A stretch of 47,884 bases of DNA from Escherichia phage ZL19, in sequence record OM258170, one strand, 5' to 3'. Both the position numbers and the translations under genes were made by a program. Under the pieces are notes generated by a model. The model saw nothing but the letters and a program-made list of their open reading frames with translations. It searched no databases and was not told where the DNA came from. Positions 2,656 to 47,695 of this stretch are shown one piece after another. Position 1 is the stretch's first letter. Each line of letters begins with the position of its first letter.

Positions 2656-2916
2656 ATGAGCAAGTACGACCGCAAAATCATTGGTATTGATGGCACGGTA
2701 ACAACAGTAGATGTTTATCGTGTTCTTGATGCTTTTGGCGTAACTGACCCAGCAACGCAGCACGCGGTAAAGAAGATGCTTTGTATGGGATTGCGTGGCC
2801 ACAAAGATTACTTAACTGATCTTAATGACTCTATTGAGTCACTACAGAAAGCTAAGGAGCTTTACTTGCAGAGGATGATTAGTGAATCGCCTAAATCAAT
2901 TCAGGCTGGTAAATAG
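2656..2916 (+). CDS. hypothetical protein (86 aa)
   Basis: ORF with GAGGA RBS; stop TAG lies inside downstream promoter palindrome. Confidence 0.45.
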   Translation: MSKYDRKIIGIDGTVTTVDVYRVLDAFGVTDPATQHAVKKMLCMGLRGHKDYLTDLNDSIESLQKAKELYLQRMISESPKSIQAGK

Positions 2917-2956
2917 CACGAATTGCTAAAACCGCTCCGGCGGTTTTAGTTATAGT
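2914..2956 (+). promoter_or_regulatory. palindrome-type promoter module (TAGCACGAATTGCTA + TATAGT -10)
   Basis: 15-bp palindrome 2914-2928, -10 TATAGT 2951-2956 (37 bp downstream), then leader and RBS. Confidence 0.55.
2929..2947 (+). terminator. intrinsic terminator hairpin inside promoter module
   Basis: AAACCGC-TCCG-GCGGTTTT hairpin with T-run. Confidence 0.5.
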
Positions 2957-2985
2957 TAGTTAACACCAAACGAGAGGAAAGAGAA

Positions 2986-3078
2986 ATGAAGCAATACCCA
3001 TCAAGCAATCACCATAACGGTCACATCATGCAGTTCTACCGCCACAATCTGAAGACTAAGGGAGTATTTGGAAAATGA
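2986..3078 (+). CDS. small ORF (30 aa)
   Basis: ATG with GAGAGGAAAGAG RBS directly after promoter module; ATGA overlap with next gene; below track cutoff. Confidence 0.3.
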
Positions 3079-3371
3079 TTACAATTAACCTATCAGATAA
3101 AGACGCCGCAATCCTGAAGAGCATAGCTCAATTCAGTAACTCCAGCCCATTCGAGCAGATGAGGGTTGCCAAAGAGGTCGTGGCGCAGATTAATAACCAG
3201 CAGTTCGACGTCGGCGAATTCGAGTCATCACGTCAGTACGAGTCGCTTAGCGTGCAGAGTGCAGGGTTCATACCAAAGAGCGAGTTCACTAAAGGGAAGG
3301 GGTGGAGCATGAAAAAATCGCAGTCAGAATACTCATACCTAGATAACTGGGATAAGGCGAATAAGAAATGA
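3075..3371 (+). CDS. hypothetical protein (98 aa)
   Basis: ORF translationally coupled to upstream small ORF. Confidence 0.45.
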
Positions 3372-3556
3372 AAGATATTAAAACCACAGATCGAAGCGAT
3401 GACCCCCTAATGTTCCAGGTTGACAGCAAGACAACGAAAGAGCACATGAATAAACTGGAGTCATTTGGGATTGATGTTGGCGCATCGAAAGCAACATATG
3501 CCGATAAAATAATCAAATCAGCCATTCAATATGATGTTGGGTTCGGAGAGGGCTGA
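3368..3556 (+). CDS. hypothetical protein (62 aa)
   Basis: ORF with ATGA start/stop overlap. Confidence 0.4.
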   Translation: MKDIKTTDRSDDPLMFQVDSKTTKEHMNKLESFGIDVGASKATYADKIIKSAIQYDVGFGEG

Positions 3557-3559
3557 AGG

Positions 3560-3697
3560 ATGATTTACATTCACACTTACTACACAGGTAAGTTTAACAG
3601 CGTCAAGCATGTTCGCGTGCATGATAGCTACGAGAGTGCAAAGGCGCAATGGCTTATTCTTGGCGGTGACATTAATTCATATAGAGTCGCTGAATAG
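3560..3697 (+). CDS. small ORF (45 aa)
   Basis: ATG 3560 with GGAGAGGG RBS; stop TAG inside next promoter palindrome. Confidence 0.3.
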   Translation: MIYIHTYYTGKFNSVKHVRVHDSYESAKAQWLILGGDINSYRVAE

Positions 3698-3737
3698 CAC
3701 GAATTGCTAAAGCAGTATTGGGGTAATCTGATATAGT
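3695..3737 (+). promoter_or_regulatory. palindrome-type promoter module
   Basis: TAGCACGAATTGCTA 3695-3709; TG-n-TATAGT 3729-3737; TACCCCATTGAAACGAG leader. Confidence 0.55.
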
Positions 3738-3768
3738 TACCCCATTGAAACGAGATGAGGAATTGGAA

Positions 3769-4086
3769 ATGAAAGATCTTAGAATGTTTACTGTTTTTGT
3801 TGCAGTGGATGATGTTGATGGCGAAAATTCATTCTTTGTTTTCGAGCACGAAAAAGTAGCGGAATGGGAAAGATACTATTCTTATGTTGTTTTACCTGTA
3901 TCCGTGTTTGAAGGTCAATATATAATCGATAAGATAGGTAAGTTAAAGGAATACATCATGAAGGAAAAGAAATGCGAATGGCCTGAGATCAACAAGAGGA
4001 AAAGAATGAACGATATGGTTAATCCAATAATGGTTTGCTCATTTGCTATTGATGAATCTAAAAGTGATGATGGGGTAAAAAGATGA
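3769..4086 (+). CDS. hypothetical protein (105 aa)
   Basis: Track ORF 3745..4086 starts at TTG; ATG 3769 has GAGGA RBS. Confidence 0.45.
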   Translation: MKDLRMFTVFVAVDDVDGENSFFVFEHEKVAEWERYYSYVVLPVSVFEGQYIIDKIGKLKEYIMKEKKCEWPEINKRKRMNDMVNPIMVCSFAIDESKSDDGVKR

Positions 4087-4122
4087 ATAGCGACCAAATA
4101 TTTGACATGATGATGAGTCAAT

Positions 4123-4329
4123 GTGAAGAGGTTGGTAAAAAAAATGGCAATGCGATTCCACCAATCAGAACCCAAGCTCCAGGCCAACCACTTCGACGGC
4201 TACGCGACATTCATCATTGCCCAGGCTTGCGGGATGCGTGACGAGCCACAGGTTCACACCATCCACTTAACAGAAGAACAGGCTCGAGAGTTGGCCTACG
4301 AAATTCTAGAGCAATTGAACCGAATTTAA
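4123..4329 (+). CDS. hypothetical protein (start uncertain: GTG 4123 or ATG 4144)
   Basis: Protein-like frame; a competing 52-codon frame from ATG 4083 is Pro/Arg-rich and looks non-coding. Confidence 0.35.
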   Translation: MKRLVKKMAMRFHQSEPKLQANHFDGYATFIIAQACGMRDEPQVHTIHLTEEQARELAYEILEQLNRI

Positions 4330-4380
4330 CGAGCCTAAAACGAATTCTAACGAACTATAATTTAAGTAAGGTGATTCATC

Positions 4381-4506
4381 ATGGAAGTACAAGAAAGCCC
4401 AGTAGAGTGGTGCAGGCGAATGCAGGACGAAGCTAAAACGGGCGAAGAGGCGATGGCTTACTACGAGCTGGCGAAAATGTGGATGGAGCGGGAGAAGAGA
4501 CAATGA
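4381..4506 (+). CDS. small ORF (41 aa)
   Basis: ATG with TAAGGTGA RBS; ATGA overlap with next ORF. Confidence 0.3.
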   Translation: MEVQESPVEWCRRMQDEAKTGEEAMAYYELAKMWMEREKRQ

Positions 4507-4655
4507 GCTTCACTGAATATGTTATCGCATGCGAGAGGTTGGTTTTCGATATGAAGACTTTCCACTGGTTCGTCATTAAGGATTTGATTAAGCCTTATAA
4601 GCAGGGCGTGACACCTGAGGCATTTATCAAGAGCTTCTATAGCACTAAAAGCTAA
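4503..4655 (+). CDS. small ORF (50 aa)
   Basis: Coupled to upstream ORF; 3' end overlaps promoter palindrome. Confidence 0.3.
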   Translation: MSFTEYVIACERLVFDMKTFHWFVIKDLIKPYKQGVTPEAFIKSFYSTKS

Positions 4656-4682
4656 ACGCAGTCGCCACGGATGGCATATAAT
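4640..4682 (+). promoter_or_regulatory. palindrome-type promoter module (variant TAGCACTAAAAGCTA)
   Basis: Motif 4640-4654, CCACGGATGGC box, -10 TATAAT 4677-4682. Confidence 0.5.
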
Positions 4683-4712
4683 TACCCAATCAACACAGCG
4701 AGAGATTGAGAA

Positions 4713-4949
4713 ATGTTCGGACTAAATGACGCATACTTCAACGCAGTTAAGCGACAGGCTGACAAGCTAAACGATGAGTACAGCAAATTGGGAGTAAAGA
4801 AGAAAGATGATAAGGTTGTGGCTGCACTGATCACACAGGTTTGGGGCCCGGTATCAACACTTATCGCTCGCGATAAATTTGTGTGGATTGCTGGTTATCG
4901 AAAGGGTCGAGTTGGTCATGACGAGAATGGGAATAGCCTTTATGAATAA
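4713..4949 (+). CDS. hypothetical protein (78 aa)
   Basis: ORF downstream of promoter module with GAGAGA RBS. Confidence 0.45.
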   Translation: MFGLNDAYFNAVKRQADKLNDEYSKLGVKKKDDKVVAALITQVWGPVSTLIARDKFVWIAGYRKGRVGHDENGNSLYE

Positions 4950-5500: not shown

Positions 5501-5514
5501 ATAAAGGAGTCATT

Positions 5515-6651: not shown

Positions 6652-8217
6652 ATGTCTTTAGTATGGGAAGAAATGACCATTCAGGAAAAGATGGCCGTCA
6701 AGGCGATATCAGAACACAGCTTCGAGGGCTTTCTTCGCTGCTGGTTCCAAATCACACAAGGCGAGCGATACATCCCTAACTGGCACCACAAATATCTATG
6801 CCGAATTATCGACGAGATTATAGCAGGGGAGCGAAAGGACACCATCATCAACATAGCGCCGGGTAGTGGAAAGACGGAAATCGCTTCAATTCACTTTCCG
6901 GCCTACTCTATGGTTAAGTTAAAGAAGGTTCGCAACCTTAACATCTCTTTTGCCGACTCACTGGTTAAGCGCAACTCCAAGCGCGTACGTGACCTCATCA
7001 AGTCTCAAGAATTTCAGTCACTCTGGCCATGTAAGTTTGGCACTTGCAAAGACGATGAGCTTCAGGTTCTTGATGAGAGTGGCAAGGTGAGATTTGAGTC
7101 AATCTCGAAAGCGGCTGGTGGTCAGATTACTGGTGCTCGAGGTGGGTACATAACTGAAACATATAGCGGCGCGGTTTTGCTGGATGATTTTGACAAGCCC
7201 GCCGATATGCTATCAGCAGTGTACCGCTCGAATAATCACGTAATGCTAAAGAACACGATTCGCTCACGTCGCGCTAGCTCTGTAAAAGGAAAGGCGACAC
7301 CAATAATTTCGATACAGCAGCGACTGCACGTCAATGACTCAACGTATTTCATGATGGAAGGCGGTATGGGTATCGACTTTGACTTGATTAAGATACCTGC
7401 GCTAGTTACTGAGGATTACATAGATTCGCTTCCTGACTGGATTAAAGAACAGTTTGCGGAAGACGTATTAAGCAGTGAGTGCATTGAGCGAGATGGCGTA
7501 AAGTACTACAGCTACTTTCCTAAAAAGGAGTCAGTAAACGACCTTGTTGCGATGTGGGATAGTGACCCGTACACTTTCCTTAGTCAATATCAGCAGGAAC
7601 CTGTAGCACTAGGTGGAAACCTCATTAATGTGGATTGGTTCCAGCGAATCAGCGATACTTTCAGACCTCCAGCTAAGTATGACTATAGATTCATCACATG
7701 CGATACCGCGATGACTACAAAGAGTTATAGTGACTTCTCTGTGCTTCAACTGTGGGGATATAAGGATGCTAAGATTTACCTTATAGACCAGCGTCGAGGC
7801 AAATGGGAGGCGCCTGAGTTGGAGGCGGAACTACTGGACTTCGAGAGGAAATCAAGGGCAACCAGTCAGGTAGATGGCATCCTACGAAAAATCATCATCG
7901 AGAAGAAATCATCCGGAATCGGACTTATTCAGTCGGCAGGCAGAGTGATGAGAACGCCGATAGAGCCATACGTACCTGATAACGACAAGCTAACCAGGGT
8001 AATGAGCGCACTGCCACAGATTAAGGCTGGCAATGTAGTTCTTCCAGAATCAGCGCCGTGGTTAAGCGGATTGCTCACGGAGATTGCAGCTTTTACGGCA
8101 GATGATAGCCACAAACACGATGACCAAATTGACTGTCTAACAATGGCAGTAAACCTTGTTCTCAATATCGCAGATGATCCTAAGTCCAGATTAATGCGCA
8201 TAGCGGGAATTAAATAG
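6652..8217 (+). CDS. terminase large subunit
   Basis: 521 aa, Walker A APGSGKT, C-terminal nuclease-like region, position before portal. Confidence 0.85.
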   Translation: MSLVWEEMTIQEKMAVKAISEHSFEGFLRCWFQITQGERYIPNWHHKYLCRIIDEIIAGERKDTIINIAPGSGKTEIASIHFPAYSMVKLKKVRNLNISFADSLVKRNSKRVRDLIKSQEFQSLWPCKFGTCKDDELQVLDESGKVRFESISKAAGGQITGARGGYITETYSGAVLLDDFDKPADMLSAVYRSNNHVMLKNTIRSRRASSVKGKATPIISIQQRLHVNDSTYFMMEGGMGIDFDLIKIPALVTEDYIDSLPDWIKEQFAEDVLSSECIERDGVKYYSYFPKKESVNDLVAMWDSDPYTFLSQYQQEPVALGGNLINVDWFQRISDTFRPPAKYDYRFITCDTAMTTKSYSDFSVLQLWGYKDAKIYLIDQRRGKWEAPELEAELLDFERKSRATSQVDGILRKIIIEKKSSGIGLIQSAGRVMRTPIEPYVPDNDKLTRVMSALPQIKAGNVVLPESAPWLSGLLTEIAAFTADDSHKHDDQIDCLTMAVNLVLNIADDPKSRLMRIAGIK

Positions 8218-8257
8218 CACTAATTGCTAAACATTGAGGCCACGGATGGCGTATATT
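8215..8257 (+). promoter_or_regulatory. palindrome-type promoter module
   Basis: TAGCACTAATTGCTA 8215-8229 overlapping TerL stop; CCACGGATGGC; -10 TATATT 8252-8257. Confidence 0.5.
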
Positions 8258-8288
8258 TACCTTACACAAACGAGAGGAGAAAAGACAA

Positions 8289-8645
8289 ATGGCACGCACT
8301 TCAAAGGCTGTATATCTTGGCAACAACGATGATGTGTATTATGGCTTCACCGTAGGTAAGGAATATGAGATTGTATCGTATACTGATGATGACCTCATTC
8401 TGATCGTTGATGATGATGGCGAATGCCGTGGCATCAATAACGGGGCATTCCACAAGTTCGAACTCTCAGTAACAGAATGCGCAGCCGCAGCCACTGGCAA
8501 TAATAAAAGACCGGATCTCAGATATTACATAAACGGGCATGAGGTTGACATGATTGAGTTCGAAAATGTGCGCTATAAGGTGGATCAGCTTGATGAGGAT
8601 GGCGTAAAATGCGACACAATAAAGTTCGAGGTAAAATTCGAGTAA
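8289..8645 (+). CDS. hypothetical protein with internal duplication (moron-like)
   Basis: Own promoter module and terminator, inserted between TerL and portal; acidic D/E-D-G-x-x-C repeat. Confidence 0.45.
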   Translation: MARTSKAVYLGNNDDVYYGFTVGKEYEIVSYTDDDLILIVDDDGECRGINNGAFHKFELSVTECAAAATGNNKRPDLRYYINGHEVDMIEFENVRYKVDQLDEDGVKCDTIKFEVKFE

Positions 8646-16230: not shown

Positions 16231-16235
16231 TTGCA

Positions 16236-16278
16236 TAGCACTTTTTGCTAAAGCACTTATTCAGCTTTACTGTATAGT
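16236..16278 (+). promoter_or_regulatory. palindrome-type promoter module
   Basis: TAGCACTTTTTGCTA 16236-16250; TG-TATAGT 16271-16278; CATCGAAACGAAATGAGAG leader. Confidence 0.55.
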
Positions 16279-16311
16279 TATCTCATCGAAACGAAATGAG
16301 AGATTAAAGAA

Positions 16312-28826: not shown

Positions 28827-28866
28827 GTTTCGTTTCGATGGAAAGATAATACCGCATCCTTGCGAT
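28827..28866 (-). repeat. 40-bp perfect repeat (promoter -10 plus leader), copy A
   Basis: Identical to 46447-46486. Confidence 0.8.
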
Positions 28867-28888
28867 AAGTGTTTAGCAATTAGTGCTA
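28846..28888 (-). promoter_or_regulatory. palindrome-type promoter module (minus strand)
   Basis: Motif TAGCACTAATTGCTA on minus strand, -10 TATTAT 37 bp downstream, leader CCATCGAAACGAAAC. Confidence 0.5.
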
Positions 28889-29158
28889 TTAGTGAATATC
28901 CTCACAGCCAGGAATGGACTTAACATTGTAATGCCGATAAGCGAATATCAAGTTAAGAGCCTGCTCGACCGTGCATTTAAGGGCGCCAGAGATAATAAAT
29001 GAAGACTCAGTGATGTGATTTATTAACTCATTTCTGACAGGGTCGTCATCTGCTAGTAACTCTGCGCGCTTAACAAAAAGAGCGTTGTTTACCAGGATTG
29101 TCACAACCTTTTCATTGAGCTCTTTCTTCGCTTTTGCAATCTCTTTCTCGTAGTTCAT
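28889..29158 (-). CDS. hypothetical protein (89 aa)
   Basis: ORF with AAGGCGG RBS. Confidence 0.4.
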   Translation of the reverse strand: MNYEKEIAKAKKELNEKVVTILVNNALFVKRAELLADDDPVRNELINHITESSFIISGALKCTVEQALNLIFAYRHYNVKSIPGCEDIH

Positions 29159-29300: not shown

Positions 29301-29948
29301 CTACTTATCTTTAAGTAGCAACTTGATATCAATTCCTAGATTATTCTCAATCAATCCAGTCAGTGCACCTACCTTTTCCTTAAGCGCGAAGCATTGCGAT
29401 TCATACTTAAATCTTTCCTCCATCTCATCAGAACGACTAACCCAACACTGGCGAGCCTCACAAGCCAACATGTCGAGTTTTTCATCGGTATTCTTATCCA
29501 TGAGTAAGATCTCATTTATCCTTTGCTCTGCAACAATGCGCTGACTCAGGTGTGCATTTTGCGCATTAGCCACACCAAGCATCATGCGCGCTTCTTTTAA
29601 CTCATCAATGCTTACCATCTTACTGATTACTTCTTCTTGTTTTTTGACTAACGCCTCAAGTTCATGAAGTCGACGGATAACCCTGTGACGAAGAACGACG
29701 CTATAGCCAGTTATTAGCGTTTCTGTAAGTTCCTTGTTAAGTAAAATCTCTGATGTATAGCCGCGATTGTCCGTAAGTACTTGATAATCATCATGACCCA
29801 AATCTGGGGCATCGTTATAATGTAACAATTCATTGATCATTTCCTTTGTGTCGCGAACGACGTGATCATGACGCTTACCTGTCAATTCAGCAATTTCCTT
29901 CGTGCTCATCATGGTTTTTGGCTGTTCTTTGTACGCCTCAATGTTCAT
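29301..29948 (-). CDS. Rha-family regulatory protein with coiled-coil C-terminus
   Basis: MSTKEIAELTGKRHDHVVRDTKEMI matches Rha pattern; track ORF trimmed to ATG with AAGAGAGA RBS. Confidence 0.55.
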   Translation of the reverse strand: MNIEAYKEQPKTMMSTKEIAELTGKRHDHVVRDTKEMINELLHYNDAPDLGHDDYQVLTDNRGYTSEILLNKELTETLITGYSVVLRHRVIRRLHELEALVKKQEEVISKMVSIDELKEARMMLGVANAQNAHLSQRIVAEQRINEILLMDKNTDEKLDMLACEARQCWVSRSDEMEERFKYESQCFALKEKVGALTGLIENNLGIDIKLLLKDK

Positions 29949-30052
29949 TTTAGTCTCTCTTATGTTTTTCATGTCTCAGATTTTAGCCATCGTTTGGTTT
30001 TGGTCTATCGATTTTCGGTAGACCAAGCAGCACCATTGCCGCCATGCGCCTA

Positions 30053-30095
30053 AATATACCCAAAGATAGCTAGTTGTCTTTAGCAATTGGTGCTA
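30053..30095 (-). promoter_or_regulatory. palindrome-type promoter module (minus strand) for Rha gene
   Basis: Motif TAGCACCAATTGCTA on minus strand, -10 TATATT at 30053-30058. Confidence 0.5.
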
Positions 30096-30122
30096 TTTAT
30101 CGCCAATTCCACCATAAATCAC

Positions 30123-31745: not shown

Positions 31746-31746
31746 A

Positions 31747-31789
31747 TAGCACGAATTGCTAAAGACAAAATTAAAAGGCGGGGTATGAT
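31747..31789 (+). promoter_or_regulatory. palindrome-type promoter module
   Basis: TAGCACGAATTGCTA 31747-31761, -10 TATGAT 31784-31789, TACCCCATC leader. Confidence 0.55.
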
Positions 31790-31818
31790 TACCCCATCAA
31801 CAACGAACGAGGTTAAAG

Positions 31819-35533: not shown

Positions 35534-35557
35534 TGTGTAAAGTCTCCATATGTAAAA

Positions 35558-35602
35558 TAGCACGAATTGCTAAAGTGGATTGTAGCATCTTTCAGGTATA
35601 AA
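35558..35602 (+). promoter_or_regulatory. palindrome-type module in plus orientation, function ambiguous
   Basis: TAGCACGAATTGCTA 35558-35572 with TATAAA at 35597-35602; no plus-strand gene downstream; 25 nt upstream of tailspike ATG on minus strand. Confidence 0.35.
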
Positions 35603-35623: not shown

Positions 35624-36596
35624 AGCTGTTCAATAAATCACTTGCCTTATATATCTTCTTCCTGATTCCGCTCTTGAATGAGTATTCATCATTTGGTATT
35701 ACCACATCAAGATTCCTCTCATCAGCAACGCAAAGCAATTCCCTATCAAGATAGCAAGCAACTCTTAACTTGAAATCTTTGAGTGCGTAAGCAACCATCT
35801 CCATGTTGTAGCTAGAGTGGCAAACAAGTACACATCGGTTGCCAGTAGCAAGATGAACACGAATACCATCAATCCAATTATCCACAAGATAAGCGTACTC
35901 ATCACTTTTAAAGGAACCAATAACAGCAACTGACTGGCGTGTGTAATATTTTGCAGCATAACTAACACCTCCCTCCTCGTTAATAAACATTACATTGCAC
36001 ATTTCTTCTGATATACCGTCACTATAAACCATAAAGCACGGTATTGCGTGTATTATTTCACCGGATTTTGTCCTGCCAACATCAAAACCAAACTCGCTAT
36101 AGATACCCTCGTATGTACTGAGCGGGGTTGATTCTACTCTTTCAGTCCTCTCCATTATCTCTAAGCATCTCTCGTGGTCAATTTGAGCGCCCATTTTGTA
36201 GAGCTTGGTTCTTGATGCTTGCTTGTTTGCCTTGTTAACAACCTCAACAGGGATAAGGCTTAACCACCCACCGAGAACATCGATACATTCACTAAATGAC
36301 TCACCTCGCATTTTCTGGACCCAAACAACACCATCTCCTGAACCGCATTGGTTGCAGATAATTCCACCATCACCATCTTCGCTAACCTTATTAGTCCATC
36401 TTGCGCGATCGTTGCCGCCGCAATAAATGCACGGCTGATGCTTTTTGGTCTGGAAAAACTTAGGGTCAGCGCCGCAGATGTTGATAAGTGCTTTATCCCA
36501 CAGGCCGCGCATTCTTGGTATAACTTCTTTCTTATCGTAGTGCATATCAATCTGTCTCTTAACAAATAAAAAAAGGATGTACCGATTATGGCACAT
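35622..36596 (-). CDS. DNA primase (zinc-ribbon + TOPRIM-like)
   Basis: CIYCGG...CNQCGSGDG zinc-ribbon motif; start could be M18 at 36545. Confidence 0.55.
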   Translation of the reverse strand: MCHNRYILFLFVKRQIDMHYDKKEVIPRMRGLWDKALINICGADPKFFQTKKHQPCIYCGGNDRARWTNKVSEDGDGGIICNQCGSGDGVVWVQKMRGESFSECIDVLGGWLSLIPVEVVNKANKQASRTKLYKMGAQIDHERCLEIMERTERVESTPLSTYEGIYSEFGFDVGRTKSGEIIHAIPCFMVYSDGISEEMCNVMFINEEGGVSYAAKYYTRQSVAVIGSFKSDEYAYLVDNWIDGIRVHLATGNRCVLVCHSSYNMEMVAYALKDFKLRVACYLDRELLCVADERNLDVVIPNDEYSFKSGIRKKIYKASDLLNS

Positions 36597-36604
36597 CCCA
36601 TTCT

Positions 36605-37078
36605 TTACTCTTTAGCTTTTCGTGCTGCCTCGTTGGCGGCCTTAATCTTACGCCATGATCGACACTCTGGCTTGGTGGCTAATTCAGCTTCGGTAACCAC
36701 GCGCAGCATATGACGCTTTTTGCAACGTAGTGTAAGAGGCTTGCCGTTACCGTCGAATTGCAGGTCTGGTCGGCAGAATGTAGCTCGAAAACCTTCTCCG
36801 GTTCGTTTGTAGTAGTTGTGCGACAGCTGAGCACCACGCGCAGAAATCATACCACGATTGAACCATTCTTCTACAGTTTGGGGAGTTACCTTTAACTGCT
36901 TTGCGATGTTTGCCTTTGTTCCGAAGAAATCAAGGAGCATCTCAAGCCGTGCGCGTAACCCTGCCCTTACCTCGTCTTTTAAAACGTAGTAGCCTGAAGG
37001 TCGTTTCCGTTGTTTTTTGTCTTCAGTGCGGATGGTTCCGTTATTACCGTTAGTGGTTCGCTTGTCAACTGCACTCAT
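36605..37078 (-). CDS. HTH DNA-binding protein (putative regulator)
   Basis: Basic protein with helix-turn-helix-like IAKQLKVTPQTVEEWFNRG; ATG with GAGGT RBS; divergent from helicase. Confidence 0.5.
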   Translation of the reverse strand: MSAVDKRTTNGNNGTIRTEDKKQRKRPSGYYVLKDEVRAGLRARLEMLLDFFGTKANIAKQLKVTPQTVEEWFNRGMISARGAQLSHNYYKRTGEGFRATFCRPDLQFDGNGKPLTLRCKKRHMLRVVTEAELATKPECRSWRKIKAANEAARKAKE

Positions 37079-37091
37079 TTTGTTACCTCGA

Positions 37092-37133
37092 TAGCATTTT
37101 TTGTTAAAAGTCATTCTTATTTGATGGTAGTAT
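37092..37133 (+). promoter_or_regulatory. palindrome-type promoter module (variant) for helicase
   Basis: TAGCATTTTTTGTTA 37092-37106, -10 TAGTAT 37128-37133. Confidence 0.45.
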
Positions 37134-37179
37134 TGTACTCAATTAAACGCTACAAGACAATTTTTATAGGAATTTAGAT

Positions 37180-39175: not shown

Positions 39176-39595
39176 ATGAATATTACAGACAAAGTTGATT
39201 ACATTGAGTTTTACCCTGGCCCGGTTAAGTCATGCCCTAAAGAGGATGATGAACAAATCTTTTGCTCTGATTGGGTTAAGTATAACTACCCAGGGATGGT
39301 ATTTTTCCACTGCGTGAATGAGGGTAAGAAAACCATTGGTCAAGCAAGAAAAGATCAGGCTAAGGGTCTCCTTAAGGGAGTGTCAGACTGTATGTTTCTT
39401 ATACCTGAATCTATCCGAGGCAAATACCCTTTCGGAGCTATAGAGCTAAAGAGAGCAGGAAAAACGCAGGCAAGCCCAGTCAGTGAGGAGCAGAAAGCTT
39501 TCCTTAAAAGCGTAATGGAATCAGGTGGTTTCTCCGCAGTCGCCTACGGCAGGGAAGGGTTCCTTGCAGCATTCAAAGAAATGATTTCAAAATAG
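39176..39595 (+). CDS. VRR-NUC domain nuclease
   Basis: PD-(D/E)xK-type core GAIELKRAG; immediately after helicase. Confidence 0.6.
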   Translation: MNITDKVDYIEFYPGPVKSCPKEDDEQIFCSDWVKYNYPGMVFFHCVNEGKKTIGQARKDQAKGLLKGVSDCMFLIPESIRGKYPFGAIELKRAGKTQASPVSEEQKAFLKSVMESGGFSAVAYGREGFLAAFKEMISK

Positions 39596-39635
39596 CACGA
39601 ATTGCTAAATGAGATTTCAAAAGATGGGGTATAGT
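39593..39635 (+). promoter_or_regulatory. palindrome-type promoter module
   Basis: TAGCACGAATTGCTA 39593-39607 overlapping stop; -10 TATAGT 39630-39635; CATCGAAACGAAACGAAG leader. Confidence 0.55.
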
Positions 39636-39671
39636 TACTTCATCGAAACGAAACGAAGAGAGAGAAACAAA

Positions 39672-40093: not shown

Positions 40094-40278
40094 TTGGCAT
40101 CTGCGTAAAAACAAATGGCTTCTTTACACTTCTTGAGGATTATGAAATTAATTTCGATTCAAATGAAATAACAGTGTTAAGCGATGATGGGTGCTATTGG
40201 TTCCTTAGTTATCAAGGTGATGGTTATTACGGTTGCAGAGATTCAGGCGGAAAAGAGGTTAGTTTCTTAGTCGAATAG
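40090..40278 (+). CDS. hypothetical protein (62 aa)
   Basis: ATGA overlap; GGAGGA RBS. Confidence 0.4.
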   Translation: MIGICVKTNGFFTLLEDYEINFDSNEITVLSDDGCYWFLSYQGDGYYGCRDSGGKEVSFLVE

Positions 40279-40318
40279 CACTTTTTGTTAAAAATCAAAT
40301 CCATGGATGGATTATATT
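40276..40318 (+). promoter_or_regulatory. palindrome-type promoter module (variant)
   Basis: TAGCACTTTTTGTTA 40276-40290; CCATGGATGG; -10 TATATT 40313-40318. Confidence 0.45.
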
Positions 40319-40348
40319 AAACACATCAACAACGCAGAGGATTGAGAG

Positions 40349-41050: not shown

Positions 41051-42187
41051 ATGGCAACTGCAAAAATTACCAACGAAGAACTGCGCGAAGAACTGGCAAA
41101 TGGCATGACAAACAAGGCAATCGCAGAGAAGTACGGCATGAACATTCGCAACGTTGAATTGCGTCGCAGTAAGCTGGCGAAGAGTGGAGAATTGCACGGA
41201 AACCCAGGCATCAAGAAGCTAGTTCCTGACGGTTATATGGTTAAGGGTACGTCAACCATGATTGACGCTGATGGTAACGAGAAGATTAGATGGGTCAAAA
41301 CCTCAATAGACAATGAGCGCCTTGAGGTTTTAATGGAGCAAGCTCGCGAGGCATTCTGCTCTGAGTTGCCAAAGGCCACTCCATCTGAATCACCAAATGT
41401 TAACTTTGATAATGACACACTTGCGATGTATCCAGTTTTTGATTTGCACATTGGGGCGATGGCCCACAAACATGAGTGTGGCGAAAACTATGATACAGCA
41501 ACAGCAGAGAATGTTATGAATGGGTTCTTTGACTACGCTGTAGATAAGGCGCCAAACTCTAAGAATGCTGTATTGGTATTGGGTGGTGATTTCCTACATT
41601 ACGATTCCCTAGAGGCTAAAACCCCGGCCTCAGGCCATATCTTAGACTCTGACAGTCGTTACGCTAAGATTGTTTATGTCGCAATCCGGTCAGTTCGTCG
41701 TGCGATCTCTCGAATGATGGAGAAGCACCAAGTTATTGATATTAAAGTAATAAGTGGAAATCACGACGAAGCAGGGATGGTTTGGCTTCGCGCTGCTCTT
41801 GCTGCATTTTATGAAGACGAGCCTCGCGTAAATGTTGATGTTAGCCCAGCTGCAATGATGATGACAAGCTTTGGAACGACGCTTATTGGATACACTCATG
41901 GCCACCAAATGCGGAAAGCCGATACTCGACTAACTGTTATGGCAACTGATTTTCGTAAGTTATTTGGTCAAAGTGAGTATGTTTACACACATAGTGGCCA
42001 CTGGCATTCTCAGAAGATTACAGAAACAAACTTGGGAATTGATGAGGTTCATGGGCAGCTGGGAAGTCCTGACGCGTACTCAGCAAATGGCGGCTGGCGC
42101 TCTCAACGTCAAGCGGCAGTTATTGTCTACCATAAAGAATTCGGTGAAGTTGGCCGCTTCATTTGTCGCCCTAAAATGTTTAGCTAA
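41051..42187 (+). CDS. metallophosphoesterase with N-terminal HTH-like domain
   Basis: Calcineurin-like motifs GGDFLHYD, GNHDE, GHWH; N-terminal MTNKAIAEKYGMNIRNVELRR HTH-like segment. Confidence 0.6.
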   Translation: MATAKITNEELREELANGMTNKAIAEKYGMNIRNVELRRSKLAKSGELHGNPGIKKLVPDGYMVKGTSTMIDADGNEKIRWVKTSIDNERLEVLMEQAREAFCSELPKATPSESPNVNFDNDTLAMYPVFDLHIGAMAHKHECGENYDTATAENVMNGFFDYAVDKAPNSKNAVLVLGGDFLHYDSLEAKTPASGHILDSDSRYAKIVYVAIRSVRRAISRMMEKHQVIDIKVISGNHDEAGMVWLRAALAAFYEDEPRVNVDVSPAAMMMTSFGTTLIGYTHGHQMRKADTRLTVMATDFRKLFGQSEYVYTHSGHWHSQKITETNLGIDEVHGQLGSPDAYSANGGWRSQRQAAVIVYHKEFGEVGRFICRPKMFS

Positions 42188-42230
42188 TAGCACTTTTTGC
42201 CTAACCCATGCCGTAGAAATGCGGCATAAT
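42188..42230 (+). promoter_or_regulatory. palindrome-type promoter module (variant)
   Basis: TAGCACTTTTTGCCT 42188-42202; -10 CATAAT 42225-42230; CATCGAAACGAG leader. Confidence 0.45.
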
Positions 42231-42271
42231 TACCACATCGAAACGAGATGAACTAAGCGAGGAAACACAAG

Positions 42272-44083: not shown

Positions 44084-45667
44084 TCACCCCAACAGTCGTG
44101 GATTAATGTAAACTTTATCACCAATCAGGCACGTATAGTTTTTCTCATCAAGCATTGGCAGTAAGTGATCTTTAATCTTTGTCATTACACCAGCCTGAGC
44201 TTCGAACGGCTTAACCTTACGAGCCGCTTCATATAGAGAACGAATACCCACTACTCCTTTACCGTTCTTGCCTTGCTTAATTAGAATATCAATCAGCTTA
44301 TTCATCTCGGCATTGTCGCCAGCGTGACCAGCGGCGTTTGCAGATGACAGATAAGTCTTGCTAAGTTCATGGAACATAATTACAGCTTCTTGCATGGTGT
44401 CGAGCTCGATCTCTCTGGACTTCTGTGGACTACCGCCATTTGGGTTGAACCAGTTGCGCACAGTGTGAAGAACAGCTGCAATCCTTATGGCCTGCTTATC
44501 GAACTTACCCAACGCGCCACGTAACATTGTGTGTGAATACTTCCCGCCATCTGCAAGGTGAGGCTCCATCTCCTGACGCGCACGGTTGAGGTATTTCATC
44601 GCTGAGTTGCTAACTGTCAATTTCACTTCTTGCTCGTTCATGATCTCGTGAACCAGACGGAAATAGTTAGCCTTCAGCTCACCATCAATTGGCTCGTATG
44701 TTGAGTTGCCATTCTCATCAACGAATACGCGCTCACCAAGGAATGATTTTTCACGAACCAAAAGGAAACGTTCAGATACACCGATACCACGCGCACCAGC
44801 ATTCATGATGGCGTTGATTGTTTCATCCTGCGCAATTACAGAGATGCAACCCATAGCAACGAAACTCATGTTATTTTCTGCGTTGGCACGCGCGATAGAT
44901 ACGTTACCAGCGTCCCACGCTTTCAGTACAAGCTCGCTGTTCGTTTTCTTGGATCCGTCGCCATATGTCATACCAAGTAGTGAGTTCACGCTCGTTGCTT
45001 CATCCGAGATCACGGCAAAGTTACCCTGGCGGTTGTTTATTCGCGCAAGACCTTCAGGTGTGGTATCTGACACGGGGAAAACGATATCGCATAGCTTCTC
45101 GAGCTTCTCCTCTAACTCCTCTTTCTCCTCAAAAAGTGAGGCCATCTCTGATGGTGACTTCTCCTGCTTCATCTCTTTGGATAATGCAGATAGTTTTGCC
45201 ATGATCTTCTTGCGCTCACGCTTTCGCACTTCATTCAGTCGCTCAGTCTCAGCAATCATTGGAGCAATTGAAAGTGAGTTAATGGCTGACTTACCAGTCG
45301 ATGGTGGCTGGCTTGTTACGACGTAAAGCGAAGTCGGTTGCTGGGTTCCATGATACTCTACAGTAAAACGTCCAAGCATCGCCGCAGAAATACATCCCAG
45401 GAAGTGCATATAAGCAGATGACTCAGGGAACTGGACTGAGCGAGCGATGTTAGATGAAAGTTTACCAACAACATCAATGTCATTGCCGAGTGAGATTACG
45501 GGGTACTTGTCATTAGCAGCATCAATCTCGACTGGTGCTTTCCAGAATGATTGAGACTGACGATAGCCATTAGCATTAATAGCGACGCGCAGGGGTGAGA
45601 GGTTGTCTGCGGCAGCAATTGCCATAACCTGTTCAACAGATAGTTTATCTTCGTTGAAATCAAACAT
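44084..45667 (-). CDS. P-loop NTPase of unknown function (possibly DUF3987-like)
   Basis: 527 aa; Walker A SQPPSTGKSA and Walker B VISDEAT; GGAGAGAAG RBS. Confidence 0.6.
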   Translation of the reverse strand: MFDFNEDKLSVEQVMAIAAADNLSPLRVAINANGYRQSQSFWKAPVEIDAANDKYPVISLGNDIDVVGKLSSNIARSVQFPESSAYMHFLGCISAAMLGRFTVEYHGTQQPTSLYVVTSQPPSTGKSAINSLSIAPMIAETERLNEVRKRERKKIMAKLSALSKEMKQEKSPSEMASLFEEKEELEEKLEKLCDIVFPVSDTTPEGLARINNRQGNFAVISDEATSVNSLLGMTYGDGSKKTNSELVLKAWDAGNVSIARANAENNMSFVAMGCISVIAQDETINAIMNAGARGIGVSERFLLVREKSFLGERVFVDENGNSTYEPIDGELKANYFRLVHEIMNEQEVKLTVSNSAMKYLNRARQEMEPHLADGGKYSHTMLRGALGKFDKQAIRIAAVLHTVRNWFNPNGGSPQKSREIELDTMQEAVIMFHELSKTYLSSANAAGHAGDNAEMNKLIDILIKQGKNGKGVVGIRSLYEAARKVKPFEAQAGVMTKIKDHLLPMLDEKNYTCLIGDKVYINPRLLG

Positions 45668-45741
45668 TACTTCTCTCCGTGTTGTTTCTGAGCGGCCATT
45701 ATATCAACGACCGCTTATAATTCATTATCAATTTGTGCTAT

Positions 45742-46256: not shown

Positions 46257-46429
46257 TAGTGAGCCTTGTAGTTGGTAGAGAATTTAGCACCTTCGAATTT
46301 TGAAGGGCGGCGGTTAGCGTTAATTGCTTCGTAAGTTTTTTTAGTGTCGCGAGCATCAATCACTTCAACAACCATCATGGCAACCATCGGGAAAACTACT
46401 GCGATAACCATCAGAGTTAAAATAATCAT
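46256..46429 (-). CDS. small membrane protein (57 aa)
   Basis: ATG 46429 with AAAGGTAAAG RBS; N-terminal TM segment; track ORF extends upstream into promoter leader. Confidence 0.4.
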   Translation of the reverse strand: MIILTLMVIAVVFPMVAMMVVEVIDARDTKKTYEAINANRRPSKFEGAKFSTNYKAH

Positions 46430-46446
46430 TTTCTTTACCTTTCGTT

Positions 46447-46486
46447 GTTTCGTTTCGATGGAAAGATAATACCGCATCCTTGCGAT
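46447..46486 (-). repeat. 40-bp perfect repeat (promoter -10 plus leader), copy B
   Basis: Identical to 28827-28866. Confidence 0.8.
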
Positions 46487-46508
46487 TCTGTTTTAGCAAT
46501 TCGTGCTA
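46466..46508 (-). promoter_or_regulatory. palindrome-type promoter module (minus strand)
   Basis: Motif TAGCACGAATTGCTA on minus strand at 46494-46508, -10 TATTAT 46466-46471. Confidence 0.5.
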
Positions 46509-46653
46509 TTTCGTGCCTTTTCTATCGCCTTGAGCATAATTTCATGACTCTCAAGCAAGTCTTCGCGAAACCAGTCGCCGCAGGGCCAACCCTTTCCGCT
46601 GTAGGCGCTAATAACTTCCAGATCGAAATAATTTATCTCAGATGGTAGAAGCA

Positions 46654-46893
46654 TCATTTCACCTCGTCAAAAGTTGCAACCCCAGGAATAAACATCCCAA
46701 CCTTCCAACCTGCAATGGCAATCCATCCAGAATCGTGCCTGTGTGGTCGATCAGCGCCATTAATCACCCATTCGTTCGGGATTATCTTCCCGTTAATGAT
46801 TAGCGGCTCAGCGTCGTATACAGGGCCTTTAACGAATGGCGTTAATACTTTCTTGTCGGTACTTGTAATGCAATTGGTGCAGCGAATTTTCAT
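46654..46893 (-). CDS. hypothetical protein (79 aa)
   Basis: Track ORF 46654..46959 trimmed to ATG with GAGGA RBS. Confidence 0.4.
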   Translation of the reverse strand: MKIRCTNCITSTDKKVLTPFVKGPVYDAEPLIINGKIIPNEWVINGADRPHRHDSGWIAIAGWKVGMFIPGVATFDEVK

Positions 46894-46903
46894 ATCTAAA
46901 TCC

Positions 46904-47080
46904 TCAAATAAATGGTAAACATTCGGCACAGCCAAGACCATCACAGCACAGTAATTCATCCTCTGACTGGAATTGCCTTGCTAAATCAATGTCCAACTTT
47001 CCGCGCACCACAAGGTCTGTGTAATCTTCGTTAAGCCCAATCAGTGCGCATTCGTGACGCAACTTATCTTTCTTATTCAT
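46904..47080 (-). CDS. small Cys-rich ORF (58 aa)
   Basis: ATG with GAGG RBS; five Cys near C-terminus; below track cutoff. Confidence 0.3.
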   Translation of the reverse strand: MNKKDKLRHECALIGLNEDYTDLVVRGKLDIDLARQFQSEDELLCCDGLGCAECLPFI

Positions 47081-47088
47081 GAATAACC

Positions 47089-47286
47089 TCAGAAGTTACC
47101 AAGTACCAAAGACATTTGCTTGCGTGTCTTGCACTCAGACAGCTTAGCGAACAAAGCCTTAGCTTCAGGGTCATCTGTCTGCTTTACACAGAATGCGCAA
47201 CTTTCTGCGATATCCTTCACACGGCGGCGAGCATCCTTAATTTCCATTGCGATTTCGTTTAAAGTGTTCTTGATTGCGATATCCAT
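47089..47286 (-). CDS. hypothetical protein (65 aa)
   Basis: ATG with GAGGG RBS; first gene of right-arm minus operon. Confidence 0.45.
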   Translation of the reverse strand: MDIAIKNTLNEIAMEIKDARRRVKDIAESCAFCVKQTDDPEAKALFAKLSECKTRKQMSLVLGNF

Positions 47287-47411
47287 TTTATTCCCTCGTC
47301 TCGTTTAAGTTGTTAGAGGTTCGCTTTGATGCCATCGCTGCTTGGGTGGTTATCCTGTTCCTTCAGGAGGCCGCTCGGCTCTTTACTTCCCACCCCGTTC
47401 TCTATGTATTA

Positions 47412-47454
47412 ACTATACTTCTTTTCTTTACTGCTGTTTTAACATTTCGTGCTA
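47412..47454 (-). promoter_or_regulatory. palindrome-type promoter module (minus strand, variant)
   Basis: Motif TAGCACGAAATGTTA on minus strand at 47440-47454, -10 TATAGT at 47412-47417. Confidence 0.45.
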
Positions 47455-47652
47455 TTTAATAACTTTCCACTTCATTTACTTCTTTCGAGGAACCCGGTCA
47501 GACTTTGCTGCCGGAGAAGGTGTCTGGGAGTTTACCTATTCGGAAGTGACTCAACGTGCCCTTTCTCAACACTCGCCAGCATTTTTCATCTGGACGATTC
47601 GACCTCTGGGAGGCAGCTACTTGGCGTTCGCTTCACTGCTTCCTTGAGGTAC
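47455..47652 (-). ncRNA. candidate non-coding transcript between two promoter modules
   Basis: ~200 nt downstream of minus-strand promoter 47653-47695 without an RBS-preceded ORF; speculative. Confidence 0.25.
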
Positions 47653-47695
47653 ATATTACCAGTTTCTTGATTTATGTCTTTAGCAAAAAGTGCTA
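47653..47695 (-). promoter_or_regulatory. palindrome-type promoter module (minus strand)
   Basis: Motif TAGCACTTTTTGCTA on minus strand at 47681-47695, -10 TAATAT at 47653-47658. Confidence 0.45.

Follow-up and report, generated by a model that had tools for sequence, protein, structure and literature searches.

The genome of Escherichia phage ZL19 (OM258170; "the window" below is the whole stretch of 47,884 nucleotides that was analyzed) repeats one short element in front of promoter after promoter, which raises the question of what reads it. A sequence-only reading had described a 5-N5-5 palindrome for a dimeric phage or host factor and had recognized no known E. coli factor site in it. The 15 box coordinates listed there are all correct, the minus-strand numbers being the right-hand ends of the sites, and the TAGCA-N5-TGCTA repeat is real: TAGCANNNNNTGCTA has 11 exact matches in the window against 0.08 expected, and 20 against 2.16 at one mismatch or fewer. 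Copies absent from that list lie at 1476 (+), 45740 (-), 36628 (-; weak), and 35558 (+; an orphan).

Shape of the box and geometry of its promoters

The conserved element is oriented and reads A-T-A-GCAC-KWW-TTG-Y-T-AAA. A true palindrome was rejected because motif position 6 is C (15/15) and position 10 is T (13/15), which do not pair; palindromic flanks would be A and T, whereas A is observed on both sides (A0 15/15, A16 15/15). The palindrome for a dimeric factor is thus not sustained, the conserved positions being asymmetric both in the 15 copies and in 252 modules. Across these 252 modules, G3, C4, A5, and C6 are conserved at 98–100% and A15-A17 at 96–99%; positions 8-9 hold only A or T (W), positions 1 and 13 each hold C or T (Y), and the proximal element is TAAA in 92%.

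In 15 of 16 copies, the distance from the T of TAGCA to the start of a downstream -10-like hexamer (TATAGT, TATAAT, TATATT, or TATTAT) is exactly 37 bp, and at 37092 it is 36 bp; none of the modules has a -35 hexamer at the proper position, so that a sigma-70-type -10 without a -35 is borne out. The window has no excess of canonical -35/-10 promoters (42 vs. 39.9 in shuffles). The transcription start is predicted at a conserved A 7 nt after the -10, which puts the box center at about -41/-42 and agrees with the class II activator position proposed earlier. The leader TAYCYCATCGAAACGA downstream of the modules is likewise real; the CCACGGATGGC box is present but is one among several short G+C hairpins in a variable spacer, whose truly conserved feature is G at -14 (80% of the 252 modules). 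In about eight copies, the upstream gene's stop codon, said to be supplied by the motif, falls inside the box or abuts it (ORFs ending at 2916, 3697, 4655, 8217, 31745, 39595, 40278, and 42187).

Correspondence with the host marbox

MarA, SoxS, and Rob bind DNA as monomers, each with a pair of motifs of the helix-turn-helix (HTH) type. Their marbox/soxbox consensus is the 20-bp AYnGCACnnWnnRYYAAAY (PMC3709825, PMC2064960, PMC6900184), which served as an external search pattern fixed beforehand. The phage box agrees with this consensus at each position, contrary to the statement that no known E. coli site fits. In the window, AYNGCACNNWNNRYYAAA has 15 exact matches against 0.12 expected, 14 of the 15 being boxes, and the ChIP-seq form GCAHWWWWTGYYAAA has 18 against 1.44 with one mismatch allowed. 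The mar operon's own marbox, ATGCCACGTTTTGCTAAATC, is identical to the phage box at 16 of 20 positions; on the phage matrix, the boxes score 21–33 bits, and micF, fumC, and mar 6–11. Judged from sequence, the asymmetry of the box logo is that of the marbox, and the consensus accounts for each asymmetric box position. The box is therefore best explained as a marbox, which is 20 bp long and asymmetric and is bound by the AraC-family activators MarA, SoxS, and Rob; this identity appears to be new.

The geometry can be compared with that of host promoters. In class II promoters, a forward marbox lies over the -35 region, with sites clustered at -41 and without a recognizable -35 (PMC12052159; PMC10268841; PMC8811837). 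In the phage, the marbox is forward in every module, and 15 modules have a gap of 18 bp to the -10, two a gap of 17 bp; read directly from the E. coli K-12 sequence, the gaps are 18 (micF), 18 (sodA), and 17 (fumC). Nearly every promoter of this T1/Rtp-like coliphage bears a near-perfect marbox at a fixed distance from the -10. With the boxes labeled on this reading, the features are as follows (mismatches are to the consensus).

1475..1524 (+): marbox module; marbox 1475-1494 ATAGCACTAATTGGTAAAAA, gap 17, -10 TATAAT 1512-1517; reads into ORF 1549..2001
2913..2963 (+): marbox module; marbox 2913-2932, gap 18, -10 TATAGT 2951-2956, predicted start 2963; terminator-like hairpin CCGCtccgGCGG in spacer
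3694..3744 (+): marbox module; marbox 3694-3713, gap 18, -10 TATAGT 3732-3737
4639..4689 (+): marbox module; marbox 4639-4658 ATAGCACTAAAAGCTAAACG, 0 mismatches, -10 TATAAT 4677-4682; reads into ORF 4713..4949
8214..8264 (+): marbox module past the large terminase gene; marbox 8214-8233, -10 TATATT 8252-8257; reads into 8289..8645, head genes
16235..16285 (+): marbox module past the major tail protein gene; marbox 16235-16254, -10 TATAGT 16273-16278; reads into tail chaperone and tape-measure genes
28839..28889 (-): marbox module; marbox 28870-28889, 0 mismatches, -10 TATTAT 28846-28851
30046..30096 (-): marbox module; marbox 30077-30096, -10 TATATT 30053-30058; leader of about 74 nt, then Rha-domain gene 29301..29972
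31746..31796 (+): marbox module between exonuclease VIII and Erf genes; marbox 31746-31765, -10 TATGAT 31784-31789
35557..35576 (+): orphan consensus marbox between two minus-strand genes, no correctly spaced -10; directly downstream of the tail-fiber gene's candidate extended -10 promoter (minus strand, TGCTACAAT); kept in Rtp (33762) and T1 (34903)
36578..36628 (-): weak marbox-like module upstream of the primase gene; GCAGCACGAAAAGCTAAAGA, 2 mismatches, gap 18, -10 CATAAT 36585-36590; spacer and leader double as terminator hairpin after the regulator gene
36605..37078 (-): regulator gene, Rtp52/T1 gp23 family; Cro-like HTH core, invariant basic N-terminal arm
37091..37140 (+): helicase-gene module, marbox degenerate (ATAGCATTTTTTGTTAAAAG), gap 17, -10 TAGTAT 37128-37133; adjoins the regulator gene's start codon
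37132..37160 (-): candidate regulator-gene promoter, conventional sigma-70 type, TTGTCT-17-TACAAT
39592..39642 (+): marbox module; marbox 39592-39611, 0 mismatches, -10 TATAGT 39630-39635
40275..40325 (+): marbox module; marbox 40275-40294 ATAGCACTTTTTGTTAAAAA, -10 TATATT 40313-40318
42187..42237 (+): marbox module, proximal element weakened (ATAGCACTTTTTGCCTAACC); -10 CATAAT 42225-42230; towards lysis genes
45691..45741 (-): marbox-like module upstream of DUF3987 helicase gene 44084..45667; ATAGCACAAATTGATAATGA, 3 mismatches, -10 TATAAT 45698-45703
46459..46509 (-): marbox module; marbox 46490-46509, -10 TATTAT 46466-46471
47405..47455 (-): marbox module; marbox 47436-47455 ATAGCACGAAATGTTAAAAC, -10 TATAGT 47412-47417; long leader
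47646..47696 (-): marbox module; marbox 47677-47696, -10 TAATAT 47653-47658; no ORF immediately after

By sequence matches, the module is family-wide and also crosses families: it recurs throughout T1 and Rtp as well as one Pantoea and one Vibrio phage, and properly spaced copies are present in the T4-like phage Lw1. The numbers of exact consensus matches, with those in shuffles after the slash, are 13/0.10 in Rtp, 15/0.13 in T1, 4/0 in AAS23, and 7/0.07 in Vc1, and, in the podovirus genera, 7/0 in IME_EC2 and 7/0.03 in C130_2; most copies in these six have a -10 at gap 18, and the Rtp boxes stand at places homologous to those of ZL19.

Candidate readers of the box

Host Rob, MarA, or SoxS (RamA in Klebsiella) probably binds the box in monomeric form and brings in sigma-70 RNA polymerase, a reading given a probability of about 65%; RamA is a further marbox-binding activator in Klebsiella, Salmonella, and Enterobacter. 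Near-perfect marboxes on nearly all promoters suggest that the phage probably relies on host activators rather than on a regulator of its own. Of the earlier interpretation, the promoters, the class II position, and the option of a host factor stand, while the dimer with its palindrome and the unfamiliar site are not supported and the phage HTH candidates only poorly so. In a module, a forward marbox would take the -35 position (GCAC distal, YYAAA proximal); after 18 bp of free spacer would come a sigma-70 -10 with its G at -14, and transcription would start at an A 7 nt further on. One MarA-family monomer would grip the box via its two HTH motifs, substitute for the -35 contact, and hold RNA polymerase via sigma region 4 and the alpha C-terminal domain, as at micF-type promoters. 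The spacer may host the upstream transcript's terminator hairpin in many copies because it needs no specific sequence. Rob would be the likeliest factor in unstressed cells because it is made constitutively; a contribution from MarA, SoxS, or RamA would come on top in multidrug-resistant mutants and in cells under antibiotic, oxidative, or bile stress. Most speculatively, at the two boxes that lie close downstream of conventional promoters running the opposite way, for the regulator and tail-fiber genes, occupancy would repress rather than activate.

Several points count against host activators. T1-like phages grow fast in unstressed laboratory cells, and the SoxS-specific consensus prefers CAAA, whereas the modules mostly carry TAAA. 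One box-bearing phage is recorded as a Vibrio cholerae phage, whose host would need a MarA/SoxS/Rob homologue, and the lone conventional promoter of the regulator gene is also expected of a first-expressed activator. MarA and SoxS are scarce in unstressed cells, and Rob is reported to be largely aggregated (PMC10268841, PMC12052159); strict dependence would therefore need a small active Rob pool or a Rob-mobilizing phage function.

The uniformity of the boxes beyond that of host marboxes could reflect a different, more exacting reader, such as a phage-encoded one, whether a MarA mimic beyond the reach of Pfam or a shared protein non-homologous to MarA; alternatively, sigma-70 holoenzyme might act factor-free. 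Such readings are unlikely, although the boxes are nearer the ideal consensus than host marboxes, the phages grow well without stress inducers, and G at -14 with a good -10 could allow factor-independent activity. Drexlerviridae, IME_EC2, and C130_2 do exchange genes, since they have a replication module in common (primase, helicase, VRR-NUC, exonuclease VIII, and Erf); however, only replication and recombination enzymes are common to ZL19 and IME_EC2, and no AraC/HTH_18 domain was found in the 31 ORFs of the window that were scanned, the HTH regulator included. A reader unrelated to MarA is not expected to copy every degenerate marbox position, and for the holoenzyme, TTGCTA lies 22 bp from the -10, beyond the reach of sigma region 4.

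The Cro-like product of 36605..37078 might instead bind TAGCA-N5-TGCTA as a dimer centered at -42 and activate as lambda cI does at PRM, being made first from its own conventional promoter, which it would then repress. The 2006 Rtp genome paper reportedly proposed an Rtp52-type regulator as reader of the repeats; in five Drexlerviridae, the regulator gene alone has a conventional promoter, whose -10 overlaps the helicase-module -10 face to face in ZL19 and likewise in Rtp, T1, AAS23, and Vc1. This reading has a low probability, since the recognition helix is highly variable (QTVEEW, AVINEW, QCVHEW, RLTNAY) whereas T1, Rtp, AAS23, and Vc1 all carry an identical box. Moreover, IME_EC2 and C130_2 share box, spacing, and -10 yet are without a homologue of Rtp52 (an HMM search run with --max gave best E-values of 0.11 and 0.47, against 5e-62 for T1), the conserved positions lack two-fold symmetry (C6/T10, A0/A16), and the marbox consensus accounts for all the asymmetric ones. 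The product of 36605..37078, named earlier as a candidate, is thus a poorly supported reader, as are the Rha-domain proteins, which have no counterpart in Rtp, T1, AAS23, or Vc1.

Quite improbable, though compatible with any other reading, is that the modules are mainly portable recombination cassettes of promoter and stem-loop, like the PeSL elements of T4-type phages, their uniformity being due to spread by recombination rather than factor-driven selection. Consistent with this, properly spaced copies, the CATCGAAACGA leader included, occur amid small hypothetical ORFs of the T4-like phage Lw1, many modules have a stem-loop within the spacer, and modules flank small accessory genes near genome ends. 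However, spacers and leaders vary among copies and phages while the box and the 18-bp distance are kept, which points to selection on function, not simple copying. The host nucleoid protein Lrp is a very improbable reader and usually works from clusters of upstream sites rather than one site at -41. Its SELEX consensus, yAGhAwATTwTdCTr (quoted in PMC5554404), agrees at 11–13 of 15 positions, with the outer TAG...CTA, the 5-3-5 architecture, and the A/T center, but it disallows the invariant C6, its ATT mismatches the central GAA/TAA, the invariant A0 and AAA15-17 are unexplained, and the marbox consensus fits far better.

Comparison with known systems

The phage modules most resemble the class II mar-sox-rob promoters of E. 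coli and Salmonella (micF, fumC, sodA, inaA, nfo, lpxC P2, lpxL P1, and rfaY P1), with which they share the forward 20-bp asymmetric consensus over -35 centered near -41 (PMC10268841, PMC12052159), a sigma-70 -10 without a -35 hexamer, and the 18-bp gap of micF and sodA. Unlike the host regulon, they lie in a virulent genome and serve almost all transcription units rather than a small stress regulon; host marboxes are notoriously degenerate, whereas the phage boxes are near-ideal, nearly identical to one another, and have, beyond the consensus, an invariant A (position 2) and T (positions 10-11).

Wietzorrek et al. (2006, J Bacteriol 188:1419) reportedly described conserved inverted repeats in phage Rtp and attributed them to the putative regulator Rtp52. 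These are the same element in the closest sequenced relatives, with boxes at homologous places, but the evidence favors an oriented marbox over inverted repeats, and two box-using genera are without Rtp52. As with lambda cI at PRM and the class II sites of CRP/FNR, the site is centered at about -42, replaces or adjoins the -35, and would activate via sigma region 4 and alpha contact; unlike these dimers with two-fold symmetric sites, the phage box is asymmetric and suits a monomeric two-HTH protein.

T4 middle promoters (MotA box plus AsiA; sigma appropriation) likewise combine, in a phage, a sigma-70 -10 with an activator-read box and no -35, and TTGCTAAA is loosely similar to the Mot box TGCTTtA (consensus PMC1524935). 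However, the Mot box is centered at -30, 11–13 bp from the -10, whereas the phage box ends 18 bp from it, and the scanned ORFs yielded no homologue of MotA or AsiA. Finally, TAGCAC and TTGCTA resemble the -24 and -12 elements of sigma-54 promoters (TGGCAC-N5-TTGCW), but the spacing is 2 bp shorter, AG replaces the invariant GG, and a sigma-70 -10 lies at a fixed distance downstream.

Box copies and module architecture

The window is an essentially complete, Rtp-like genome that belongs to the Drexlerviridae (subfamily Braunvirinae). Over the 10 kb compared, it shares 91% identity with Escherichia phage TR3 and 89% with phage Rtp. Its gene order is that of Rtp and T1. Rfam and tRNA scans of the window returned a tRNA-Arg gene only (anticodon TCT; 5423-5500, plus strand), which related phages likewise carry. 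The T1 gp16 homologue (41051-42187, plus strand) has 88% identity to T1, as against 40-60% for other core proteins, which suggests recent exchange or unusually strong constraint. Two Rha-domain proteins are encoded at 21446-21988 and 29301-29972 (both minus strand), one of them with an ORF11CD3 domain; counterparts are absent from Rtp, T1, Pantoea phage AAS23, and Vc1, and their genes are accessory insertions, one lying among the tail genes, on the strand opposite to theirs. Host labels in the Drexlerviridae should be treated with caution; records including MG065663, PP134917, and ON843697 are labelled as Campylobacter or Pseudomonas phages, yet they are near-identical to coliphages.

The box, an oriented 20-bp element, is strongly enriched: TAGCANNNNNTGCTA occurs 11 times exactly in the window compared with 0.08 expected, and 20 times with one mismatch compared with 2.16 expected. 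All the box coordinates of the sequence-only reading were correct, and the fixed distance that it described also held, as the -10 hexamer starts 37 bp past the first T in 15 of 16 aligned copies, with the copy at 37092 (36 bp) as the exception. Because the box is enriched and its distance to the -10 is fixed, the feature is real, strongly non-random, and position-locked. Further copies were found beyond those first listed.

Additional box copies in the window
1476, plus strand, additional copy
45740, minus strand, additional copy
36628, minus strand, weak copy ahead of the primase gene
35558, plus strand, orphan copy

The module, comprising box, spacer, -10 hexamer, and predicted start, was compared across 395 distinct modules from the window, four other Drexlerviridae, and IMG/VR contigs. 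In 247 of the 395, the best -10 lies at the same position, corresponding to 18 bp from the end of the box; it is shifted by one base downstream in 31 and upstream in 15. Of the modules in the window, 15 have a gap of 18 bp and two a gap of 17 bp. The modules serve small terminal, replication, and structural genes alike, and canonical -35/-10 promoters are not enriched in the window (42 vs. 39.9 in shuffles), so the modules appear to be the main promoters of the phage.

In the window and in 252 modules, the position counts read A A-T-A-G-C-A-C-(G/T)-(A/T)-(A/T)-T-T-G-(C/T)-T-A-A-A-(A/C), in which the symmetric part is limited to the five-base cores TAGCA and TGCTA. C at position 6 (98%) stands opposite T at position 10 (96%), and both flanks are A (A0 94%, A16 99%), which breaks two-fold symmetry in 93-99% of the 252 modules; this asymmetry is not predicted by a dimer on a two-fold site, and the proposal of a palindromic dimer site is not supported. 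The -10 consensus is TATAgT, G is found at -14 in 80% of the 252 modules, and positions -35 to -30 read AAA(A/G)(C/A)N, without a recognisable -35. An A located 7 nt past the hexamer, with pyrimidines before it, is conserved in 85% of them and is the predicted transcription start; numbered from this predicted +1, the box spans -50 to -31, overlapping the -35 region with its centre near -41, which agrees with the class II activator position suggested earlier.

Correspondence with the class II marbox

It has been reported that the marbox or soxbox bound by MarA, SoxS, and Rob has the consensus AYnGCACnnWnnRYYAAAY (PMC3709825, PMC2064960), and a MarA motif derived from ChIP-seq is GCAHWWWWTGYYAAA (PMC6900184). 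AYnGCACnnWnnRYYAAAY matched the window exactly 15 times, compared with 0.12 expected, and 14 of the 15 matches are boxes; similarly, GCAHWWWWTGYYAAA with at most one mismatch gave 18 matches vs. 1.44 expected. The search with the published marbox consensus is an independent test, since that consensus itself was the query. Variation of the box in the 252 modules stays inside the consensus codes (position 13 C/T, that is Y; positions 8-9 A/T, W; position 1 T/C, Y), and invariance is highest in GCAC and AAA, the two recognition elements. What looks like a palindrome is the GCA...TGY pseudo-symmetry inherent to the marbox.

All modules with a -10 have the forward orientation, GCAC being distal and AAA proximal, and the E. 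coli micF marbox is oriented in the same way. In class II promoters, a forward marbox overlaps the -35 (PMC12052159, PMC6900184); mapped starts in Salmonella have a cluster of forward sites 41 bp ahead of them, and a recognisable -35 is absent (PMC10268841); in K. pneumoniae micF, RamA is placed at about -41 with the top strand CACT-7X-AAA (PMC8811837). Host class II promoters were read directly from E. coli K-12.

Class II marbox promoters of E. coli K-12
micF: marbox ACAGCACTGAATGTCAAAAC, gap 18 bp, -10 TAGAAT
sodA: marbox ACGGCATTGATAATCATTTT (3 mismatches), gap 18 bp, -10 TATAAT
fumC: marbox ATGGCACGAAAGACCAAACA, gap 17 bp, -10 AATAAT

For micF, the annotated 5' end follows 8 nt past the hexamer. 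The mar operon marbox, in forward sense ATGCCACGTTTTGCTAAATC, is identical to the phage copy at 16235 at 16 of 20 positions. Consensus, orientation, position, gap, and -10 all fit, so every feature by which a class II marbox promoter is recognised in sequence is present, and the boxes are best described as predicted consensus class II marboxes that would make up the usual kind of promoter in a virulent phage family.

Phages of other lineages carry this combination of box, gap, and -10 as well.

Marboxes outside the Drexlerviridae
Enterobacteria phage IME_EC2 (Murrayvirus): 7 exact matches to the marbox consensus, compared with 0 expected
Escherichia phage C130_2 (Hungariovirus): 7 exact matches to the marbox consensus, compared with 0.03 expected; six are followed at 18 bp by a -10
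T4-like phage Lw1: a few copies

Two Lw1 copies keep the 18-19-bp gap; two others have a terminator hairpin between marbox and -10, with a gap of about 27-30 bp, and look like decayed or differently wired modules. A conserved leader, (C)ATCGAAACGA(A/G), begins at the predicted +1, about 7 to 25 nt past each -10 (for instance at 3744-3760, 16285-16300, and 39642-39660); it also occurs with modules in Lw1, and IME_EC2 has a different, hairpin-forming leader. Long leaders follow three minus-strand modules, at 29973-30046 (about 74 nt), 47287-47405 (about 119 nt), and ~47460-47646 (about 190 nt), with no ORF start nearby; Rfam gave no match for these three, which may represent long 5' UTRs or small RNAs.

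Many of the 18-bp gaps enclose a short G+C hairpin that runs up to the -10.

Hairpins within the box to -10 gap
Window: 2933-2950, 4659-4676, 8234-8251, 28852-28869, 40295-40312, 46472-46489
T1: 38973-39001, 39998-40024, 41980-42007

The deposited T1 annotation marks several of these as rho-independent terminators. With the hairpin inside it, the 18-bp gap doubles as the terminator of the upstream transcript, and the modules can be viewed as mobile promoter/stem-loop cassettes, a view compatible with any reader of the box. In addition, the orphan perfect marbox at 35557-35576 has no correctly spaced -10 and points away from both neighbouring genes; it lies directly downstream of a candidate minus-strand extended -10 (TGCTACAAT) and just upstream of the tail-fibre start codon, is kept in Rtp (~33762) and T1 (~34903), and is possibly a repression or timing site. 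Just downstream of the promoter of the phage regulator gene is the degenerate box at 37091, and it may be speculated that occupancy of these two boxes would hinder the opposing promoters.

Candidate readers of the box

The phage's own HTH regulator of the Rtp52/T1 gp23 family, encoded at 36605-37078 (minus strand), is one candidate reader. The abstract of the 2006 Rtp genome paper reportedly describes ten conserved inverted repeats upstream of genes and ascribes them to Rtp52 as a putative regulator. That paper is cited in PMC8594841. The regulator gene has a conventional promoter at 37079-37179, with 9-10 of 12 -35/-10 matches, and the same arrangement is found in Rtp, T1, AAS23, and Vc1; in these five Drexlerviridae, its -10 overlaps that of the helicase marbox module face to face, and the marbox lies within the regulator's 5' leader. 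Such an arrangement is as compatible with a phage regulator expressed first as with simple autoregulation. However, the recognition helix of the Rtp52 family (residues 66-75) has zero invariant residues among 43 homologues (QTVEEW, AVINEW, QCVHEW, RLTNAY), whereas T1, Rtp, AAS23, and Vc1, the last recorded as a Vibrio phage, carry an identical box; the invariant residues lie not in the HTH but in a basic N-terminal arm (DKRTxNGNNGTxRGxDKKxRKRP), of low AlphaFold confidence, and in helix 1 (EVxAGLxAR). Moreover, IME_EC2 and C130_2 use the box without an Rtp52 homologue, since whole-genome profile searches with filters off found none in either (best E 0.11 and 0.47, respectively, compared with 5e-62 for T1); in Lw1, the search covered the box flanks. 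The asymmetry of the box is also unlike a two-fold HTH dimer operator. The earlier suggestion that the 36605-37078 protein reads the box is therefore disfavoured by its variable helix, by its absence from IME_EC2 and C130_2, and by the asymmetric site, and Rtp52/gp23 is an unlikely reader.

Another phage-encoded reader, or direct recognition of the box by polymerase, seems comparably improbable. Several conserved small ORFs of the window had no match in domain searches. No AraC/HTH_18 domain was detected in 31 window ORFs, the HTH regulator included, and the proteins common to the window and IME_EC2 are replication and recombination enzymes only. Two further candidates of the sequence-only reading fare poorly: the 41051-42187 protein has a weak metallophosphoesterase match only, and the Rha proteins are not conserved in the other four Drexlerviridae.

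A site for Lrp is very improbable, as its SELEX consensus yAGhAwATTwTdCTr agrees with the box at 11-13 of 15 positions, a real but weaker resemblance, whereas it forbids the invariant C6 and misfits the box centre. CRP- or FNR-type class II sites (TGTGA-N6-TCACA, TTGAT-N4-ATCAA) differ in half-sites and spacing from the asymmetric box; a sigma-54 promoter is rejected because the box has AG-N8-GC rather than GG-N10-GC and a sigma-70 -10 lies 22 bp past TTGCTA, and this 22-bp spacer also rejects TTGCTA as a -35. The T4 Mot box is centred at -30, 11-13 bp from the -10 (PMC1524935), compared with 20 bp from the end of TTGCTAAA to the -10, an arrangement that does not fit a T4-type MotA-dependent middle promoter. 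None of the UP element, Fis, CRP, FNR, OxyR, RcsAB, and GntR-type sites, as generally described, fits the box.

MarA, SoxS, and Rob have the marbox in common as their site, and enteric bacteria conserve all three (PMC12052159). Given the evidence against Rtp52 and the lack of an AraC/HTH_18 domain in the 31 ORFs scanned, the most economical reader is host MarA, SoxS, or Rob, with RamA in addition in Klebsiella and relatives, and we assign this model a probability of about 0.65. A monomer on the forward marbox would substitute for the -35 contact and may stabilise the sigma-70 holoenzyme via sigma region 4 and the alpha C-terminal domain; class II activation has been described via such contacts (PMC6900184, PMC8811837, PMC10268841). 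Rob is constitutive and the tightest DNA binder of these proteins, yet published work describes it as mostly aggregated when inducers are absent (PMC10268841, PMC12052159). MarA and SoxS would join under stress, near-ideal boxes may make a small active pool sufficient, and the G at -14 together with a good -10 may give some basal activity. Caveats to the host-factor model include the fast growth of T1-like phages in unstressed cells and the recorded Vibrio host of one box-bearing phage, Vc1.

It is more tentatively proposed that the Drexlerviridae (T1, Rtp, Klebsiella weberviruses, and others), together with at least two podovirus genera, leave the recognition of their promoters to host MarA, SoxS, Rob, or RamA. 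If this were true, bile, oxidants, and antibiotics would gate the expression of phage genes; multidrug-resistant mutants overproducing MarA, SoxS, or RamA would support such phages better, and rob marA soxS mutants would support them poorly. The role of Rtp52/gp23 would then be a different one; in view of the invariant N-terminal arm of the protein, this role might involve RNA polymerase or the host factor.

Prior work, significance, and comparison with host marboxes

To our knowledge, a proper definition of T1-like phage promoters has never been given, and we know of no test of Rtp52 as the proposed regulator. The published annotations of T1-like phages that were consulted contain ad hoc or generic sigma-70 promoter predictions only (PMC4070988, PMC7718038). 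Literature searches on Rtp52, on Drexlerviridae transcription starts or cappable-seq, and on T1 transcriptomes yielded no relevant report, and marboxes go unmentioned in the BASEL paper. The box repeats were reportedly already seen in the 2006 Rtp genome paper; the consensus class II marbox identity, the spread beyond the Drexlerviridae, and the evidence against Rtp52 had no precedent in the literature searched, although a prior report is possible.

The class II marbox reading provides a cheaply testable transcription model for >800 sequenced phages, many of them candidates for therapy against E. coli and Klebsiella. This model couples phage growth to MarA, SoxS, and RamA, whose overproduction causes clinical multidrug resistance, and a built-in trade-off is suggested in which resistant mutants may express such phages better. 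As predicted compact, near-consensus MarA/SoxS/Rob-responsive promoters, the modules could become reporters or synthetic-biology parts. Unlike host marboxes, which score 6-11 bits on the phage matrix, the phage boxes score 21-33 bits and are far more uniform, and this greater uniformity could reflect a more exacting reader.
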